From the NCBI GenBank assembly GCA_958009085.1, contig OY253669.1, positions 868,001-932,000 of the forward strand: a stretch of 64,000 nt of DNA, given 5' to 3'. The notes under the pieces are model-generated. The model made no database searches, was not told where the DNA came from, and saw nothing but the letters and a program-made list of their open reading frames with translations. A program made the position numbers and the translations under genes. The number at the start of each line of letters is the position of its first letter. Position 1 is the first letter of the stretch. Shown piece after piece: positions 12,948 to 23,150 of this stretch. The stretch is from Protoeuglena noctilucae. Its lineage: Eukaryota.

Positions 12948-15900
12948 TCATGCGAGGTAGTTGTACACAGTCTTGTCATTCGTGTCCCGCTCGAGGAACT
13001 CCCGCTCGATCAGGGACTCGATGCGCTTTTTCAGGTCGGCAGGTTGCACCGTGAACCGGAGCTGGTCGATGAGCTCGGATATGAGCAGCTTGTGCGACTG
13101 CGGGCGCTCACGAAGAGGTCCTTTTGTGTGCATCGATCGCCCCACGCCCCCGCTTGTGACCGTTGCAGCAACCCAACTGGCTCCACTCACCAGGGTCTTG
13201 CGGGCCTTCATGATGCGCACGACGGCCGCGTCAATCTGGTACTGCCTGTCCTGCGCCACGCCCTCGTTGATCTGCTGGCTCTCCTCCTGCACCTCCTTGG
13301 GCTGCACCTGGTTCAGCCGGACGCGGAACTTGTCGCTCGTGAACCCCTCGTTGAACACAAACACGTCCGTGTCCGCCACCTCCTTGCCCTTGGGCTCCTT
13401 GAGCAGCACTTGCATGCTGGGCACGCACGTCAGGCTTTGCAGCACGCGCTTGAGCTCCCCGGCCTCGATCCCCGTCTGCTCGTCCGCAAAAGAGGTAACA
13501 GAAGGTCAGCGGCCTTGCCCCTATCGCATCATATCACATCACCCTCAAACGGCCCCATGGCGACACCGGGTGCCGCACCTGGGCCTGGATTTCCGAGCAG
13601 CTGAGGCGGTCAGCCTCCGAGAAGGCCAGGAGCACGGAGCACTGCAGCTGCGACACGACGAGCTCGCGCGCGCCCTTGCGGAACTGCGCCTTGACCGTGC
13701 AGGTGCCCTGGGACGGCACCCACGAGAGGTTGCGCCCCGAGTGCTTGCTCAGGTAGAAGGACGTGAAGGCCTCCTGGGCGCGCACGAGCTCCGCGGGGAG
13801 CGTGCACGTGGTGGAGGGGTAGCTGGGCCAGTGCCCCGCCGTCAAGACGCTGACGGAGATGTCGACGCCGCTGGGCGACGCCTCGAGGTACTGCGGTGCT
13901 CGCTTGGCCAGGCCCATGAGCTCCCGCGACAGCTCCATGTCCCGGAACATGCCCTCCAGCTTGTTCGTGAACTGCGCCCCGCACTCCTCCTGCGGGCCGG
14001 CACGCGCAGGTGGGTGGCGAGTGACGTGGGTGACGCGCTGCCTTCATCGCACCCCACCATCCCAATGTCAGCCATCTCCAGCCCAGCCCAGCCCAGCCTC
14101 GCCTTCAGCAGGGCGAGCATCTTGCGCTCGGCGTCCTCCGACGAGCTCCGCTCCAGCAGCAGCCGCCTTGCCAGGTGCCGCTTGTAGAAGGCCTCGAACA
14201 CATCCTTGCCTTGCACCAGCCGGAAGATCGACAAGGCGTCCTCCATGCTCTTCTGCGGGAGGGGAGGCTCGGAAGGTGTCCGCGTGTGTCACTCCCTCAC
14301 GCAAGCGGCAACTGCCGAATCGCAACGGGCCGTTGCAAGCATGGAAACGTGCTGTGGTGGGGTACCGCCCCTCCCCGCACCTCGAGCTCCTGGTCCGAGA
14401 TGCGCTTGACACCCGCCCGCAGCTTCTGGTCCAGGAACTTGGCCAGCAGCTCGGCCGGGCGGTTCTGGCGACTGTTGACGGCCGACTCCAGATTGTCCTT
14501 CATGGAGCGCGCGAAGGCCTCGTCGGACGCGAGGCTCTCCCGCAGCGCGGTCAGGAGCGCGGCCCGGAGCGCCAGCAGTCGGTCTACCATGTCCTTGTCG
14601 CGCCCCGTGTCCTGCACTACCTCGGTCCCTCGCTTGCGCACGTACGCGGCCCACGCGTCCCGCAGGCGCCCGACCTCTCCCACGCGCGCCAGCATGGTGT
14701 AGAGCCGCCGCAGGTCCGACACCCGGCCCTCGTCCAGCAGCTTCGCCGCCCCCGCGTCCACCAGCAAGGCCGCGTGACGCCGCACCAGCTCCTCCTCCAG
14801 CACCGAAACCATCGGGCGCCGCGTCGACGCCTCCAGGCACGCTGCGCGAAGGCCACACAACTTGCGGTCGTTTCCCTCGCCAGCGCGTGCGCAGCGACCG
14901 TAGCGGCACCGGCCCCGCACCGCCCCAGGCACGCACTCACCCGCGCACCGCTCCTCCTCCGCCGCCATCTGCGCGTCGACGGCCACGAGGTACCCCGCGA
15001 CGTCCGTGCCCGTGCCCAGCTGCGCGGCAGAGTCGCGCCGATAGTGCTCGCGAGCCCGCGTCAGCACCCGGGGCTCAAGCTCCGGGGCGTACATGCCCAG
15101 CTGCGCGAACATCTTGGTCAGCGTGCGCAGCAGCGCGCGATGGGACGCCTCGCCCTCCCGGTCCCGCTGGACCTCGTCATCCAAAGCCCGGAGGAGGCGC
15201 TCGTGCAGAGGCGCGCGCGCAAGCAGACCCTGGGCCACGAGACGCAGCGTGCGGTCGTGGATCGAATCCGAGACGCCTCCTCGAGCGACAAGAAAGCGAT
15301 CTAGCGCCAGGAAGACGTCGCGCACCAGCCGAGACTGCAGTCCAGGGCACACGAAGGGTGCTTACTTATGCGCCCCCGAGACGACGCGGCGGGCGCGTGG
15401 GGTTCGCGACGATCCGCCCTTTGTTTGCTTGGGCCACTTATTCTGCACCGTGATGGCCCGCGTGGCCCGTCGCCCGCCCGAGTGCCGCGGCCGGGACTCA
15501 CTTGCTCGCAGTGCGCCTCCCAGAGGGCCGCCACCCGCGACAGGAAGGCTCGCGGGTCCTCCGCCGCCGTCTGTTGAAGCGCGTTGAGTCGCTCGTTGAC
15601 GCACTTGTCCCAGAGCGCCATCAGCTGCGGAACGACGGGGGCCAGGTGGGGAAACTCGCGCCCAGTCTCCCCACGGGGCCGCGCCCAGGGGTGATGCGCG
15701 CCACGTTGCAACGAGTCCTCTCATCTCACCTTGGTGAGCACGGAGTCCTGCAGGTGAATCGCGCAGAGGTCCTCCACGGCCCGATAGAGCTCCTCCAGGG
15801 AATGCGACACGGGCTGCGAGTTCTGGACAGCCTCCACAGCGGTCTGCAGCATTCTCCACGTCTTCTGTGAAATCCACAGAAAGCATCCGGAGTTCCTCGC

Positions 15901-16328
15901 CAGGGACCCGAGGCGTCGCGGGGCGCGGGGGAGCGAAACAGACGAGCAACCCGTGCCACGCGAGAGAGGGTCCCGGGCTTCTTCCCGGCACGCAACGAGA
16001 TCTCGCCAAGCAGCAGGATGGAACCGCATGCGGAAAGCGTGACTTATGAAATCCTGGGCGGAGCTGCGCAGGCTGCAAAAGTCCTGGGAACCCTGACAGC
16101 CCTCCCCCCGAGGCCCTGAGGGGCCGCGCGCCGATGCCTATGACCCCGACATAAGCATGTTACCGCACACACCTCCTCGAAGTCGGTGGGGAGCTGTGGT
16201 TGGCTCTTCAGGGGCTTGATGGTCAGTTTCGCCCCGGCCTTCTTCAGCTGCAGGTGGGACGCCGCCCCGTTCATGCCTCCCCTCAGCATCCTGCTGCTGC
16301 TGCTGCCATTCGTCGGGGGGTATAGCAT
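12948..16328 (-). CDS. CUL4: Cullin-4
   Basis: KLTIKPLKSQPQLPTDFEE, SLEELYRAVEDLC, NRPAELLAKFLD, GKDVFEAFYKRHLARRLL, neddylation domain DRQYQIDAAVVRIMKARK, and terminal YNYLA*. Confidence 0.95.
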
Positions 16329-16626
16329 TGGCTGGCCCCCCGATCCCTGCAACGCCCCGAACAGCGCACTGGTGGCCAGGAGAGCGAAATCAGCACTCGA
16401 CGGATACACGCAGCCGCTTCCCGTCCAGCAGTAGGCAAATCGCGTCTCCGAGCGCCTCCGGATGTCCGGGGAGCCTCGCGTCTGGCGCTGGTGCGCCCGT
16501 GTTAGAGCAGCCTGGACCTCAAGGCGCAGCACTCGCGCTGCTCAGCATCCAGTCGCGCTCCTAGCGCCATCTCCCGTCGGCCTGGACCGCTCGCCACCGT
16601 GCGCGTCGCGGCCGCGCTGCAAAGCG

Positions 16627-19600
16627 ATGATCGTAACCAGGGATGCCAGCGTATCCTCTCGCCTCTGCGCTGGCTGCACGTGGCTAGCCCGCCGATGGTT
16701 GCACGAAAAGCCCAGCTACGCGGACAATGACGACGGCATGGCGGGGATGCCAGGTGCGCCGGATAAGCGCAGCGCAAGTCTGGCCACGCCCTCCCGAGGC
16801 CGCTCCCGCTCACCACCCGCGCTGCTGGGTGGGCGCAGGGCACCGACAGCTGCCGACGGAGCTACCTGGCGCGACGGGCCGACAACGGAAGAGGCCAGGG
16901 TCCTACTTGTCCCTCTACGGCCGCGACCTCACGTTGGAGGCGCGTGCGGGGCGCTTGACTCCCGTGGTCGGCAGGGAGCGTGAGGTGTCGCATGTCCTGC
17001 GGGTGCTGATGAAGCGCGAGAAGTCGAACCCCGTCCTGGTGGGCCCCCCTGGGTGAGCGGTGGCTCGCGGGTGCAGGTGCAAGCGCTCGTGTTGGTGTCA
17101 CCTAGCCCAGGTGGACGGTGCACCTTCAGCGTCATCCCAGGGTCGGTAAGACGGCCATCGTGGAGGGCGTCGCGCAGCGCATGGCCCAGGGTCTCCCCGG
17201 CATGGAGGCGATGCGCGTGGTGGCTCTCGATGTGGGCGGCCTGGTGGCGGGGACGCAGTACCGTGGCTCATTCGAGGACCGCGTGCAGGTGCGCTGCTGC
17301 TCGTGCTATCTGACGTGACCAGGACATGCACATTGCACATATGGACTCATCGGTATGCTTTCTGAGGAGAGCAAAGCATGGGCATTGTGCCCGTTCTTTA
17401 CCCATCATAGCAACATGCGTCTTCTACGCCCATGTGGAATCATGGGTATGCTCTCTGAGGTGACCAGGACATGCAATTACGCCTGTAAACCCATCATCCA
17501 TATTACCGCACTGCTCACCCACGCCCAGGGTGTACTGGAGGACCTCGCTGCGTCGCAGGGGGGCAGGTGGTCTTGTTCGTCGACGAGGTGCACTTGCTGC
17601 TGGGAGCCGGGAGCTCAGACGGGGGCATGAACGCAGCCAACCTGTTCAAGCCCGCCCTGTCACAGGGCGGAATGCGGTTCATCGGGGCAACGACCCCGGA
17701 GGAGTGGGCGCAGCATGTGGAGCAGGACGCGGCGTTCGCACGGCGGCTGCAGCGGGTCGCCGTGCACGAGCCCACCCCGGCGGAGGCGACGGCGTGGCTG
17801 ACGCGACTCGCGGGCGTCTACGAGGCGCACCACGGGGTCGCCATTCACCTGGACGTGCCCGCCGCGGCTGTGGAGACCGCCAGGTGTGCGTTTGACGTCG
17901 CACACCGCACACTGTGTGCCTGGCGCCAAAGGCCTTGTCCAGTCCTGCATAGCCAGTCTTATACAGACATGGTGCATCTCCGTCGCAGGCGCTACCTGAC
18001 AAGCAGGTACCTCCCCGACTCAGCGATCGACGTGCTCGACGAGGCGTGTGCCAGAGTGCGCATTCAAGAGGTCCAGGCGACGCCAGGGGCGGTCGCGATG
18101 GGCCCAAGCGTGGGAGCAACGGAGCAACACGTGCAGCCACCGTCGGCGATGCACACCCAGGGGAGCATTCCCTGCCCTGTCCCTGACGCTCGCCCTCCGC
18201 ACGGCCGGGAGGCGCGCGTGGGTGTGGCGGAGCTGCCGCGTCCCTGTCCCCACTGTGCCTTTCCCGTCCCAAGCACACCGTCCTCGCTCATCACCTGCCC
18301 GAGGCGAGGTGGCTGACACGAGCCAAGCAGCTTGGTGCAGCCTAGCACGTCCTGCACCTGACCTCCTCGCCTGCTATCGTGCTGCAAGCCAGTCTGCGCC
18401 CTTACCTCCCGTCCCCCGCAGGTGTGCATGTACCTTCCTGAACACAAACCCCCAGGACCTGGCCCTGGGTGTGTCTGTGCTCTGGAGTAAGGGCATGCGG
18501 CCGCCACAGGCAGGGGTGGCGGATGCACGGGGGCACTCTGGCAACGGGAGCACAGGGGAGGCACAGAGGCGCATGGGGCAAGTGGCACCGGGAGGATCAG
18601 GCGATGCATCGATGAGAGCGGAATGCCATGAAACTGCACGAGACGATGTCAGAGAGCCGAGCGAGGCGGATCAGAGGGCTTCGTCTTCGGGGTCTACGGT
18701 GCAGCAGGCGGCAGCTGTGTCGGGGAGGGGGCGCGTGCCGACAGTGACGGTCGGCGACGTGCTGGCAGTCGCACAGGAGATGACCGGGGTGCCCATGGAG
18801 ACTTGGGCATCAAGAGCGGGCGGTGAGATGGGTGGGGCGTGGGGCCCTGGCCTCGCGGACCAGCTCAGGAGCGCCGTTGTGGGTCAAGACGAGGCGGCGG
18901 AAGCGGTGGCCCAGGCCCTGCGTGTCGGGCAGCTCACGCAGGGCGGGGCGGGCGGCGGGGGTGCGTCGCGCCGGCCGCTAGCTGCGTTCGCGTTGGTGGG
19001 CCGCCAGGGGTGCGGGCGCACGCTCTTGTGCCAGGCGCTCGCCAGGGAGGTGTTTGGGGAAGACGCCGTGGTGCGCCTGAACCTGAGCGAGTACTCTCAG
19101 GCCTCAGCAGTCGCCAAGCTCATCGGGGCGCCTCCGGGGTACGTCGGGTACGGCCGCGGGGGTATGCTGACACAGGCGAGTGCACCCCTAGCCGCTGTCG
19201 GCCTGGCATTGCGGGCGAGCTTGCGACCCCGCTGCAGGCGAGGTGGCACAGTGCATTGCGTCCGCAGGCAATACGCGACCGGCCCCACTCGCTGGTGGTC
19301 CTGGAGAACCCCTGGCAGGCGCACCCGGACGTGCGGAGTCTCCTGGCTCAGGTTCTGCAGAGGGGAGTCCTCACGGACAGCCAGGGCCGCACGGCGGATT
19401 TCTCTCACTGCGTGATCGCGGTGCTGTGCCAGCCGCGCCCGCCACGGCAGTGGGCCTCAGCGGGCCTCGACCAAGCGAGGGGCGCCAGCGCTGGCACTGC
19501 GTCTGTGGCTCGCGTGCCGGGGCCATCCCAAGCCCCGGGGCGACCGGCGGGCATAGGCGCGGCCCCCGTCGCTGCCGACCCCGCGTCTGGGTTCCGCTTG

Positions 19601-20369
19601 GCAGAGGATGGGACATTGGAGATCCCAGGACTGGCCTCGCAAGGGGCGGGGCACTCGGAGACTCCGCCAATTCACGCCCCAATCGGCGCAGACGTCTTTG
19701 CGCCATGGGATGCGCCTGGCTCAGCGGCGGGGCGGGAAGGCGGGGTCACTGCCGGGGTCGCCACGCCGCCAGCCTGGGGCGAGGAGGGCGACTCGCTGCC
19801 GCTCGACGCCGACGCCCCTGCCGTGGCCGATGCCGAGGTGGCGCCGGGCGTGGCAGCTGCGGCAGGACCAGCACCCTGGCAAGTCTCCGAGGCGGTGCCA
19901 GAGGAGTTCGCGTGCGGTGCCTTGGATGCCGTCATCCTCATGCGCGACCTCACGGAGAGCGACATTCGAATCATCAGTGAGTGCTGCCGTCGCCAGGCGT
20001 GTGGTGCGGTTACACCGTGGCATGCCTGCCGACACTCGACCCAGCACCTCACTTCTTTTGTGCTCTGCAGCGGAGAGGGAGGTGGCGGCGACGCTGGGTG
20101 CCGTGCAGCTCGCATCGGGAGTCTCCATCTCTTTGTCGGATGAGTGCATGGGGCTCTTGACGACGGAGGCCATGCGCCGGGGGGGCCGCGGGTCAGACGC
20201 TGAAGGGGCGGTGCGGGGGCTGCTGCTCCCGGCCATTGCCGACGCCGTCGCTGAGGCGTGGCTTGGGGGCGGCGAGGGGCGCGGGGCGGGGGCTACGGGG
20301 CGCATAGAGGTGCACGTCAGAGCTGCTGACGGGGCCCGTCTCATTACGACTGCGACTGGGCGTGGCTGA
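16627..20369 (+). CDS. Divergent class-1 Clp/Hsp100 AAA+ ATPase (ClpB/ClpC-related)
   Basis: NBD1: [58 protein letters not shown]2: [32 protein letters not shown]. One frame problem near 17558-17566. Confidence 0.85.
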
Positions 20370-20584
20370 CGGGGCTCTGCGTGTCGCTCTGGGTGTGCTG
20401 GCTGTTCAAGCACGCAGCGCGGCTGGAGTGGAGATAGAGTAGGAATGCGGCATCGCAGTGAGGTGCGCCTAGAACCGCCAATGAGGGCGACTGGTGTGGA
20501 TGGCAGTGGATGCACAGAATGGAGGAACGAGCAAAGGGGTTGGCTGAACGCGACAAGAGCGCATGCATGCCACGCGGCGTCCCG

Positions 20585-23150
20585 TCATAGCGCGAGGGCC
20601 ATGCCTGGGATCTCACAGAGATGCTGCGTGAGGATGGTCACGGAGGAGTGGCAGGGACCGTGGCTCGTGACCGAGACGCTCGGCACGGCATCGGAGACCA
20701 ACTCCGACCGGCAGGCCATGTACAGGTCCGCCGACCGCTCGATGTGGGAGGGGCTGCCCTGCAAGCGAGAGGAGGATGCGAGTGGGGAAGTCAGGGAGTT
20801 AGAGGTTCATACTTAGACCGCCGGCATGCCAACCCGATCGCTCTGCCGCCCCGCAAGCACAGCAGGGCGAGCAGGCACGCCACCCCAGCCGAGCAAGCAC
20901 CACCGGCCTTGGCAAACCCCCCGAGCCCTGCGCCTCGCCTCTGGGCACTCGGATCCCCAGGTGTAGACGTGGACGATGGCCCGGTGCTTGACCGGCCAGC
21001 CCTCCCTGCCCTGGAATGGCAGCACCGTGACCTGGCGTGACGAGGCCAGGCTGGCCTGCCAGTTGAAGCGGCCCAGCAGGCGCTGTTCGACGCCGTTGTC
21101 AGGGTCGCGGCCATCGCTCGGGCGGAACTGCTTGATGCTGCGGGGGCACGTGGGGCGAGGGGGGTGAGGCGGGGGCACGAAGGGCCCGCATGGAGAGATG
21201 CCAGCCACCAAGACGATCACCCAGGCCCACTGTCACTCCAGCCAATCGTGTCAACGCGACGTTTTAGCATTGTCACGAGTGATGGCGCACCGACAGGCTG
21301 TCAAACCCCATAACAGAATGACCGCACCTGGCACCGGGGCAGACCTCGTAGACCCAGGGGCCCTGGGCGTCCACGACGCACTCCCCCGCCGTCCGGCGCT
21401 GCAGATGGCCCGTGATGGCGGCCTGGGAGGCGACAGACAGGGCGGCACGTGACATGCGTGTCCCGCGAACCCAGAAGACTTTGGGCGTCTGCGTTTGCCT
21501 GCGCTGTGCCTGTCTTTCCCACCCCGGCCTCGCCTGGTACTCCATGTGCTTCGCGGGGGCCTGCATGTCGAGCCAAAATCGCTCGCGCTGGTCGGGAGGT
21601 GGGCACAGCCCGCATGCCTTGGGGCAGTTGAGGAGCATGTAGGCGGGGTTGACGGCGCACTCGCCGTCCCTGGCCCACCCGGGGCACTTCGAGTGGCCAT
21701 CCTTGCAAGGAAGGCGGTCCTGGAGCGGAGCCGTGGCCGCCGCGCCGCTCCCGGTCCCCAGCCCCAGGGACGTCGACTCTGCTGCGGCTTGCTGCAGCCG
21801 CCACTCGCGCGCTCCTCAGGCTCCCCAGGCCCACCCCGGGGCCCTCCAGGTGTATGGCAGCGAGGCGCTTCGCCAGGTCCGCGTCGCACACCCCGGCGTC
21901 CGTCAGCACTTGCAGCACGATGTCTGTCTGCTGCTGCACGAAGTTCTCCAAAAACACCTGGGGCTCTGCGGCGCTCCCTCTCGCCTGCAACATCTCCGTG
22001 GCGACCTGCGTGGGAGCATCACGACTGCGGATCACGCCTGCTGGGAGCCGACAGGCCGTTTGCTATTAGACAGCACCGCACTGCGTGTCAAGCTGCCTGT
22101 CCCCCGCCCTGTGGCTCACCATCCGCGCCGCCACGAGCTGAGATACCATCGACACGGGCTTCTCCATCAATTCGAATGACAGCATCTCCTCGACGCTTTC
22201 CACCACCGCCCGACAGGCGAGCGCCACGGCGGAGATCTCTGCGCAACCACGACCGTGAAAGCGTGGGGTGGGTGCGATAGAAGCTACACATGGCACGCAT
22301 TCATCGTACTGTCTCGGATGCATGAACCGCTCACCGATGGACGACGGGCGAAGGCCGTTTTCACGAAACACCAGCGCCACCGGTAGGGGCTGGCCGGGGT
22401 GCGTGGCCGCGTTGGGGTCCTCCACCATTGCGTAGTCTCTGAGCACGACGTCCGCGGCTTGGGTGCTGCAGAAGGAGTGGACGGCGTCCATGACGGGGGT
22501 CATGCTGACGATGCGAGGGGAGTGCATCCTGGGAGCGCGGGGTAGGGGTGGGCGGCGGTGGGCGATGTGCTGGGGGAGGTCGGCAGGGTAAGGGCCGGGC
22601 CAGTACATGCTCCTCGTCTCACCCGTACATGGCGGAGGCCAGGTTGCAGGCCTCGACCAATGCGAAGAATCCCACGGCGCAACGCAGCTCGGTGTTCGCT
22701 GCGACGTGGAGGTCCAGGCGGGCGGCGGAGGATGACACGGGCAGGGCGCGGACCACCGCAGCGGGCGCGAGCGCGGACACGCGGGTCGCGCGGACCTCCC
22801 GTCTGGCCAAACCGTGCAGCCCTTCCAAGCTTAGCGGGCCATCCCCGCTATCGTAGACCAAGACGCTGCCGGTGGGCGCTGGGGAGCCCCGGGGGAGGCC
22901 CGCGATGAGTTCCGGGAGCAGGTTCAGCACGTAGTTTTGCAGCACGCCGTCGTAGGCCCACATACGCTCCTCGTATTCGACGAGCTGCGGGAGGGAGAGT
23001 GGCCATGCTCCAGTAAAGCTTCACGCGACGCGCTGCGAAGGCCATCCTGCGCTCGCTGGCGGCATTTACCGGAACACTTAGCTCCTGCGGGGCGACCAGC
23101 GCCAAGAGGAGCCCCAGGCCGCAGGCCCACGCCAGCGAGCGGGCCCCCAT
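20585..23150 (-). CDS. Secretory-pathway protein with ShKT domain and C-terminal MRH (OS-9/PRKCSH-like) domain
   Basis: Signal peptide MGARSLAWACGLGLLLALVA; ShKT CKDGHSKCPGWARDGECAVNPAYMLLNCPKACGLC; MRH-like CVVDAQGPWVYEVCP..IKQF..LLGRF..YTWGSEC..RSADLYMAC..PCHSSVTILTQHLC. Confidence 0.75.

Follow-up and report, generated by a model that had tools for sequence, protein, structure and literature searches.

A transcribed Clp/Hsp100 gene of Protoeuglena noctilucae with a predicted zinc ribbon in the M-domain position, an apparently inactive second motor and a frame break in the first

The window analysed here, a stretch of 64,000 nucleotides from Protoeuglena noctilucae (assembly GCA_958009085.1, contig OY253669.1, positions 868,001 to 932,000), contains, at positions 16627-20369 of its plus strand, a genuine gene that is transcribed and spliced and belongs to a distinct subfamily of class-I Clp/Hsp100 proteins. 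The subfamily as a whole would combine a presequence-like N-terminus without a Clp_N domain, a first nucleotide-binding domain (NBD1) of the ClpB/ClpC type, a linker with a Cys4 zinc ribbon, a second nucleotide-binding domain (NBD2) and a D2-small domain. In the window copy, a run of six G residues places two adjacent parts of NBD1 in different reading frames, one base apart. The break appears recent, and most likely (roughly 55%) the copy encodes no working motor and is a pseudogene of recent origin that continues to be transcribed, or at best an ATPase-dead remnant, because the splice form that preserves homology runs into a stop at codon 197 and the only in-frame mRNA seen deletes the Walker B motif. 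The first-pass annotation, made from the sequence alone, had proposed a one-motor remodeller with an intact NBD1 and a dead NBD2. Its description of an unusual architecture held up; the intact NBD1 and, with it, a one-motor remodeller encoded at this locus were not supported. It further proposed metal or redox regulation and an organellar location, both of which are possible.

Gene model and domain plan

Because open reading frames are long in all six frames of the window, where the GC content is 0.63-0.70 throughout, the region had to be read with introns. The resulting model has eight exons and seven introns and runs from the ATG at 16627 to the TGA at 20367-20369, the same span as first annotated. 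The RNA evidence consists of contigs assembled from three metatranscriptome runs (X8, X10 and X11) of one study, compared with window positions 15600-20700, and of one JGI contig that may or may not be independent of that study; a contig of run X2 (depth 292) served as the DNA comparison. Gaps in RNA cover in single runs were not counted as evidence. RNA joints at 16753|16839, 17052|17141, 17883|17989, 18303|18422, 19175|19268 and 19976|20071 (positions after permitted shifts) matched the predicted splice sites at six of the seven introns, and the third intron was joined from 17288 to 17666 instead of to the homologous acceptor at 17529. Two of the seven introns are of the GC-AG type (18304-18421 with the donor GCGAGG, and 19176-19267 with GCGAGT), and both are spliced in RNA. 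Processing is not uniform: the JGI contig retains intron 18304-18421, and an X11 contig (18825-19237) extends into intron 6. The RNA depth of the gene in X8 is 4-8, compared with 22-27 for its neighbours. An unexpressed locus had been named at the outset as a sign of a decaying pseudogene; the locus is transcribed and spliced.

Exon 1 (16627-16753, 42 codons and one base; joint 16750->16836 in X8 and X10) encodes the start codon and the presequence-like N-terminus. An upstream in-frame ATG at 16462-16464 would add 55 residues rich in Arg, Ser and Ala, which make a better-looking transit peptide; the RNA contigs start only at 16588 (X11) and 16609 (X10), the depth in 16455-16625 is very low, and either ATG may be the true start codon. 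We infer an organellar location from N-termini that only look presequence-like. Only about 170-190 bases separate the RNA starts from a cullin-like gene that is transcribed divergently, measured to its first exon, which leaves no space for further exons upstream that could encode an N-domain. The Pfam scan took in the translations of seven exons, the 42-codon first exon not being among them, and found no match to Clp_N (PF02861), in agreement with the absence of a Clp N-domain noted in the first-pass annotation.

Exon 2 (16839-17052) opens NBD1 (LYGRDLT...) and carries the first half of its Walker A motif (GPPG), with RNA joints at its borders and a match to NCBIfam ClpB positions 155-204 (E = 8.6e-13). 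Exon 3 (17141-17288; joint 17051->17140 in X8 and X10; ClpB positions 205-254, E = 3.4e-13) supplies the second half (VGKT) and pore loop 1, YRG (17259-17267), and ends in phase 0. The remainder of the NBD1 core (17529-17883) is described with the frame break below. Exon 5 (17989-18303; joints 17880->17986 and 18301->18420 in X8) contains the end of the NBD1 lid (a sequence of 19 letters; Pfam AAA_lid_9, E = 5.4e-11), a low-complexity linker, the first Cys knuckle CPHC (18245-18256) and the Cys and Pro of the second (18296-18301). After intron 5 (18304-18421), exon 6 (18422-19175; Pfam AAA_2, E = 1.6e-12; ClpB positions 527-660, E = 1.9e-27) completes the CPRC knuckle (18425) and continues through the conserved stretch FLN..P..L.LG and the rest of the linker to the Walker A position of NBD2 (GRQGCGRT, 18999-19022) and its pore loop GYVG (19137-19148). 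Intron 6 (19176-19267) is bridged by the joint 19172->19265 in X8 and X10. Exon 7 (19268-19976; Pfam AAA_2, E = 2.4e-07) holds the apparently dead Walker B LVVLEN (19292-19309), the sensor-1 position LCQ (19418-19432), a 154-residue insert and the Arg-finger position CGALD (19913-19927). Exon 8 (20071-20369; joint 19976->20071 in X8 and X10) encodes a D2-small-like C-terminal domain with the sensor-2 position EGAV (20202-20219); it aligned to the D2-small region of ClpB, ClpC and the relatives, though on its own it gave no Pfam match at E <= 0.1. Six of the seven scanned exon translations matched the NCBIfam ClpB, ClpA and ClpV1 profiles in order (ClpB TIGR03346 positions 155-712), the last exon giving no match. 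Within that range two stretches of the ClpB profile are unmatched, namely 255-267, which corresponds to the frame-shifted helix, and 407-526, which corresponds to the M-domain.

The linker between the NBD1 lid and NBD2 comprises 185 residues and is rich in Ala, Pro, Gly and Ser. The coiled-coil M-domain of about 120 residues is absent from it, as already noted from the letters alone, and no UVR motif (PF02151) was matched by the window exons. The predicted splice at 18304-18421, which yields CPHC-x13-CPRC, was seen directly in an X8 RNA contig (17572-17880, 17986-18301 and 18420-18809), and the translation of this mRNA contains both knuckles. As background, the window was translated in six frames; the resulting 127,996 residues contain four CxxC-x8-25-CxxC pairs but no CPxC pairs. 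The zinc modules of ClpE and ClpX lie at the N-terminus and not between the two NBDs.

NBD2 has the pattern of a pseudo-enzyme. A motif-by-motif alignment with canonical ClpB and ClpC bore out the loss of catalytic motifs that had been noted: the pore loop GYVG is kept, whereas Walker A reads GRQGCGRT for GPTGVGKT (Lys to Arg), Walker B LVVLENPWQ for hhhhDE, sensor-1 LCQ for TSN, the Arg finger CGALD for NRxD and sensor-2 EGAV for GAR. The NBD2 core is nevertheless 42-51% identical to six canonical Clp proteins, with every catalytic residue replaced, a pattern of a pseudo-enzyme and not of neutral decay. The closest relative for exon 7 is P0124 (250 amino acids; E = 8e-28, 43% identity over 137 columns), which shares LENP and the changed sensor-1. 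Between Walker B and sensor-1, the window and P0124 agree at 36/54 positions (67%), as opposed to 47-53% identity to the six canonical proteins, which argues that the derived state has been under selection.

The insert after sensor-1, rich in Ala, Pro and Gly, contains SGFRL within a 16-residue segment (19586-19633). The motif GF.L.EDG.(L/I).(I/V)PGL is common to the window and P0124 within an otherwise unalignable insert. The low-complexity insert itself was correctly described, and its reading as a ClpP-docking IGF loop proved weak: at the position of the [LIV]-G-[FL] tripeptide the window has S-G-F and P0124 has G-G-F, and no aligned G-F occurs in the full-length relatives P0284, P0233 and P0175. 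We rejected SGFRL as a family-wide IGF loop on the grounds of this absence and of a first position that is not Leu, Ile or Val.

Relatives and the extent of the subfamily

A HMMER search with exon 7 against 1.84 billion representatives returned 1895 matches, and the best 150 were inspected at the NBD2 Walker B. Among these 150, 141 have D-E; E-N occurs only in the open reading frame of the window itself, P0124, P0175 and P0233, and D-N in P0155, whose 90% cluster includes the Tetraselmis striata protein P0284. Other matches without D-E were P0129 (E-G), P0203 (D-D), P0221 (K-E) and P0268 (D-H), the last a full-length ClpB-like protein of 848 amino acids that has both an N-domain and an M-domain. 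Natural variation at the NBD2 Walker B may therefore extend beyond the zinc-ribbon family.

Three relatives are full-length, P0284 (923 amino acids), P0233 (908) and P0175 (919). The window product has 35-37% identity to each of them; among the three, identity is 37-48%. All three have a presequence-like N-terminus, no N-domain, a complete in-frame NBD1, a linker, PCPHC...CPxC and an E-N or D-N Walker B. Both CPxC knuckles are present in 3/3 of these proteins, with spacers of 14-23, and the first is present in a fourth relative, the truncated P0275 (417 amino acids), which also has an intact NBD1; the absence of any orthologue sharing the Cys motif, the other sign of decay named at the outset, was therefore not what the search found. 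Following the ribbon, the three full-length proteins share the stretch (F/Y)RFL(N/D)..PE.L.LG.S. A weak Zn_ribbon_NUD match was obtained in P0233 only (E = 0.0096; 16 bits, where the cut-off is 24.8). No Clp_N match was found in P0233 or P0175, nor among the 25 of 39 families listed for P0284, and the same scope applies to the UVR motif in these three proteins. For D2-small (PF10431), the scores were 1.3e-09 in P0284, 7.9e-05 in P0175 and 3.6e-04 in P0233, the last with 20.9 bits against a cut-off of 21.9.

Together, these comparisons indicate that the Cys motif is more than chance and that the family and its predicted zinc ribbon are real. Being the only ordered and conserved element of the linker, the ribbon suggests itself as the part that may bind partners or serve in regulation. 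The NBD2 Walker A motif varies among the relatives, from GPPGVGKT in P0284 through GPEGVGKR in P0233 and GPPETGKA in P0175 to GRQGCGRT in the window, which suggests that the loss of hydrolysis is the shared state and that the loss of nucleotide binding came later and is lineage-specific. Nucleotide binding by the NBD2 of the window copy is doubtful, since the Walker A Lys, sensor-1, the Arg finger and sensor-2 are all gone.

For a structural view we modelled the Tetraselmis relative P0284, standing in for the window protein, with AlphaFold2 (40 aligned sequences). The mean pLDDT was 71.3, with both NBDs above 90. The model contains no helix at residues 321-433, consistent with the absence of a coiled-coil M-domain at the position of the ribbon; the ribbon blocks scored 79/53/76 with isolated beta-bridges, the flanking segments below 50, and the insert at 731-782 is modelled as disordered. 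In a Foldseek search with this model the best matches were ClpC chains, and ClpC and ClpB chains fit equally well. A quick IQ-TREE analysis of 43 rows placed 19 long-M ClpB rows on one side of a branch with support of 100, and the window and P0275 outside this ClpB clade on long branches (2.83 and 1.72) whose exact placement is unsure. No branch is longer than that of the window copy, whose NBD2 is also the most degenerate. Assigning the family to either ClpB or ClpC was rejected, as sequence, fold and tree do not separate the two and the tree excludes only the sampled ClpB clade.

Other searches added no members. A metagenome scan with exon 7 matched 454 stretches, from which one locus was confirmed (L001, on a 1-Mb contig, 42% identity over residues 1-52) and then discarded as an orthologue, being a canonical Clp. 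A word-index search with exon 7 at the "near" lengths gave two weak canonical fragments only; one with exon 6 at the "longer" lengths gave 476 matches, the top ones at 41-46% identity, and 6/6 of those inspected have an intact NBD2. In the ESM Atlas, P0275 and P0124 led to generic AAA clusters only (scores 0.92 and 0.84). Family members are present in databases under generic ClpA or ClpB names. Targeted literature searches found no description of a zinc-ribbon, NBD2-dead Hsp100 form in the portions of the sources available: "zinc" has 0 occurrences in the available text of a 2025 survey of eukaryotic HSP100 proteins (PMC12283024), and no such form appears in the available passages of a 2021 review of plastid Clp proteins (PMC7966870), a 2023 paper on Chlamydomonas CLPB3 (PMC10299786) or a 2022 SMXL review (PMC9133912). 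According to the available passages of the Chlamydomonas paper, two CLPB genes of that alga have never been detected as protein (PMC10299786). Taking the relatives as a guide, the locus belongs to a conserved, undescribed Clp/Hsp100 class-I subfamily that includes at least one green alga (Tetraselmis striata) and environmental eukaryotes.

The frame break in NBD1 and its interpretation

Aligned with canonical ClpB and ClpC, the DNA of NBD1 spells Walker A GPPGVGKT (split by intron 2), YRG, VVLFVDEVH, IGATT, FARR and LPDSAID, and NBD1 is about 49% identical to ClpB-type proteins. The Walker A and pore-loop motifs first reported are therefore present as described; the Walker B, VDEVH, is present in the DNA and out of frame with the helix that precedes it. 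Intron 3, taken to its homologous acceptor, spans 17289-17528, and no RNA depth was recorded in the bin 17310-17480 in the three RNA runs. This intron of 240 bases has the lowest GC content within the gene (0.52) and contains three copies of a 27-nt unit within 17304-17475, two of them 93% alike and sharing a 15-mer that is unique in the window. The acceptor 17528|17529 preserves homology: the 12 residues that follow (17529-17563, frame 0) align without gaps, residue for residue, with the pre-Walker-B helix of every relative, G(I/L)LxD(I/V)xxxxG. This remnant (17529-17566) holds the six-G run at 17558-17563, after which the NBD1 core continues in frame 2 (17567-17883; NCBIfam ClpV1 4.9e-33, ClpB 6.6e-31) with Walker B (17567-17593), IGATT (17681-17695), FARR (17735-17746) and the start of the lid. 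Translation of the splice form with acceptor 17529 ends at a stop at codon 197, and Walker A, the pore loop and Walker B of NBD1 are not encoded in one continuous mRNA frame. The four relatives that cover this stretch (P0275, P0233, P0175 and P0284) are all in frame there.

An assembly error was ruled out as the cause of the break, as the same six G residues, without an inserted or missing letter, occur in the X2 DNA contig at 292x and in an X11 RNA contig (17519-17883). The break is present at a share of 1.00 in all six DNA runs covering the stretch, which may include the source of the assembly. It is the one disabling break in 2.9 kb relative to the intact orthologues, with no further breaks, in a gene transcribed and spliced in all three RNA runs.

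Among the RNA joints listed, only 17288|17666 crosses the region (X10 contig, joint 17285->17663), and it recurs in P0274, a protein of 279 residues encoded by a 952-base JGI contig that matches this gene at 100%. The resulting form is in frame over 927 codons, retains only 17666-17883 of the segment 17567-17883 and drops 46 residues of the sequence of the intact relatives, comprising the larger part of helix alpha2 together with all of strand beta3, which carries Walker B, and helix alpha3. In the three RNA runs, no joint that would place Walker B in frame was seen among those listed.

The break fixed in the DNA runs, the untidy processing, the lack of the NBD1 core in the only in-frame mRNA and the longest branch in the tree all point to a copy that no longer makes a motor. 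Several observations weigh on the other side. Apart from the single break, the frame is open over 960 codons, which at the stop frequency of the window has a chance of about 3e-7. Conservation of the skipped Walker B segment equals that of NBD1 elsewhere (18/34 identical to P0275, a manual count, compared with 130/242 for NBD1 overall), so the break is either very recent or bypassed. The Walker B region is contained in contigs of two of the three RNA runs (X8 from 17572 and X11 from 17519); the X11 contig is uninformative on the choice of acceptor because X11 also carries intron sequence. At a depth of just 4-8, a frame-restoring acceptor might also have been used at 17566/17567, and all RNA evidence consists of assembled contigs.

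It is possible, though in our view unlikely, that the Walker-B-less 17288|17666 form is the intended product, an ATPase-dead scaffold or adaptor still under selection in the manner of the ClpR or FtsHi pseudo-enzymes. It is the only in-frame form observed, with two sightings, its acceptor at 17665 has a good pyrimidine tract, the remaining frame is open, and the Walker A Lys of NBD2 has already been lost in this lineage, a drift away from catalysis. However, helix alpha2, strand beta3 and helix alpha3 form the centre of the AAA+ fold, and with most of the first and both of the others deleted NBD1 would be expected to unfold rather than merely fall silent. The deleted DNA is still perfectly ClpB-like, which makes the loss too recent to show adaptation, and the JGI transcript that has this junction retains intron 5 as well and ends there at an in-frame stop, so that it looks like sloppy processing or an escape from nonsense-mediated decay.

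A functional one-motor remodeller with a working NBD1 is somewhat harder still to defend. Here, the break would be bypassed either by a cryptic acceptor at 17566|17567 (giving a sequence of 15 letters) or by slippage of the ribosome or of the RNA polymerase within the G run. Use of this acceptor would keep Walker B at the cost of a 13-residue deletion and, in translation, open the frame of 960 codons; there is no additional decay in the Walker B segment, transcription takes place with correct splicing elsewhere, and G GGG GGC formally fits the pattern of a -1 slippery heptamer read in the zero frame. Against this, no joint from 17288 to 17567 is among those listed for the three RNA runs, the sequence before 17567 is G-rich without a pyrimidine tract, and an X8 contig ending at 17289 fits, as we read it, the 17529 or 17666 forms and not the 17567 form. 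The 13 residues are kept in all four relatives covering the stretch. As for slippage, the RNA contig has the same six G residues as the DNA, and folding of the 96 nt downstream of the G run is no better than that of shuffled sequences (z = +0.31), which leaves programmed -1 frameshifting unsupported.

Finally, that the whole locus is a decaying ClpB pseudogene whose Cys motif and architecture are accidents of GC-rich sequence is scarcely credible: long open frames are common in the window (chance runs reach 548 codons), there is a frame break and the RNA depth is low, but three full-length relatives have the same domain plan along with the two CPxC knuckles and a Walker B of E-N or D-N, the NBD2 core stays close to canonical ones despite its replaced catalytic residues, the break is single in 2.9 kb, and CPxC pairs are missing from the six-frame background.

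The neighbourhood of the gene offers further observations. The divergently transcribed gene upstream lies at 15624-16416 on the minus strand and is spliced (joints 15624|15730 and 15864|16173, with CT..AC ends), with an RNA depth three to four times that of the Hsp100 gene; its N-terminal open reading frame has a weak Cullin match below the cut-off (E = 0.001, 18.3 bits), and no more than about 190 bases of intergenic DNA lie between it and the Hsp100 gene. Downstream, an open reading frame on the minus strand at 21273-21815 has a clear ShK domain (PF01549, E = 5.4e-10). An X10 RNA contig (2058 bases, depth 11.8) at 20299-20700 overlaps the last 70 coding bases of the Hsp100 gene and continues downstream, either as a long 3' UTR or as the transcript of a convergent neighbour.

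Comparison with known Hsp100 systems and significance

The gene has the class-I Clp/Hsp100 layout, AAA and AAA_lid_9 followed by AAA_2 in the order of the ClpA and ClpB profiles. With ClpB, Hsp104 and Hsp78 it shares the two AAA+ modules and a D2-small-like domain in ClpB profile order, the level of NBD1 identity, solved ClpB chains among its best sequence and fold matches, and the absence of an L/I/V-G-F/L tripeptide. It differs from them in lacking Clp_N and the coiled-coil M-domain, in the predicted zinc ribbon of the linker, in an NBD2 that is apparently dead for hydrolysis and in its position outside the sampled ClpB clade; its summed exon scores reach 365 bits, compared with the ClpB equivalog cut-off of 1232.

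The resemblance to ClpC, ClpD, ClpA and ClpE lies in the same layout, in the ClpC chains found by Foldseek, in a ClpE chain as the best sequence match of the NBD2 exon and in a long loop after sensor-1 at the position of the ClpP-binding loop. The ClpC-type matches have GF loops, and the loop of the window and P0124 likewise has G-F followed by acidic residues. However, [LIV]-G-[FL] is given as the defining ClpP-docking tripeptide in the passages available (PMC10299786, PMC7966870), and the family departs from it as described above, which sets it apart from ClpC, ClpA and ClpE. Unlike ClpC, it also has neither UVR nor Clp_N in the Pfam matches, and its NBD2 appears inactive.

The SMAX1/SMXL/D53 proteins of land plants are likewise class-I Clp relatives outside the chaperone cycle, with domains kept as a scaffold (PMC9133912). 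Their plan, according to the available passages of the same review (PMC9133912), includes a double Clp-N and an M-domain, with an EAR motif within D2, whereas the window protein has no Clp_N, has the predicted zinc ribbon and contains no LxLxL or DLNxxP in its 960-residue product. As far as tested, the two families are related only at the superfamily level. By its sequence, then, the protein lacks the hallmarks of ClpB (N-domain, M-domain, clade), those of ClpC, ClpA and ClpE (tripeptide, UVR) and those of SMXL (double Clp-N, EAR), which agrees with the view of the first-pass annotation that it is a form distinct from known Clp classes, with no N-domain, a ribbon at the M-domain position and a non-catalytic NBD2 that keeps its pore loop.

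A parallel for NBD2 is offered by the laboratory Walker-B "trap" variants: mutants of ClpC and ClpB with the Walker-B Glu changed to Ala or Gln bind substrate without releasing it, as reported in the passages available (PMC7966870). The family has likewise replaced the catalytic Glu in NBD2 (E to N), with the Walker A of the Tetraselmis protein intact (GPPGVGKT). In contrast to the laboratory variants, its state is natural and confined to NBD2, and the lineage of the window has also lost other catalytic motifs. By this comparison, the family would be a hexameric threading machine driven by NBD1 alone. NBD2, which would have kept its fold and the GY/FVG pore loop and lost ATP hydrolysis (Walker B D-E to E-N or D-N), might act as a static substrate-gripping ring, a natural Walker-B trap, and the zinc ribbon might replace the Hsp70-docking M-domain as a regulatory or partner-binding element. 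Without an M-domain, docking to Hsp70 of the ClpB kind would not be expected, nor, without a conserved [LIV]-G-[FL], docking to ClpP of the ClpC kind.

A bolder extension, which we regard as doubtful, would be that green algae and related marine eukaryotes have a new organellar Hsp100 class, in which the M-domain has been exchanged for the zinc ribbon, NBD2 is a permanent ATP-bound or nucleotide-free "holding" ring and NBD1 is the sole motor, and that in this species the 17288|17666 junction has produced a wholly ATPase-dead subunit that poisons or regulates canonical ClpB or ClpC hexamers as ClpR does ClpP.

Class-I Hsp100 proteins are two-motor unfoldases whose partner depends on the M-domain (Hsp70) or on the IGF loop (ClpP). 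A conserved lineage with neither of these, and with a predicted ribbon and a putatively hydrolysis-dead NBD2, would be a natural experiment on what each ring contributes, on whether NBD1 alone can drive threading and on how a metal module may gate an AAA+ ring. The locus should not be labelled an intact ClpB in annotation. While the family is of interest, the copy in this window is probably broken; it may represent a case caught in the act, in which a single fresh break is present and the surviving transcripts splice around it.

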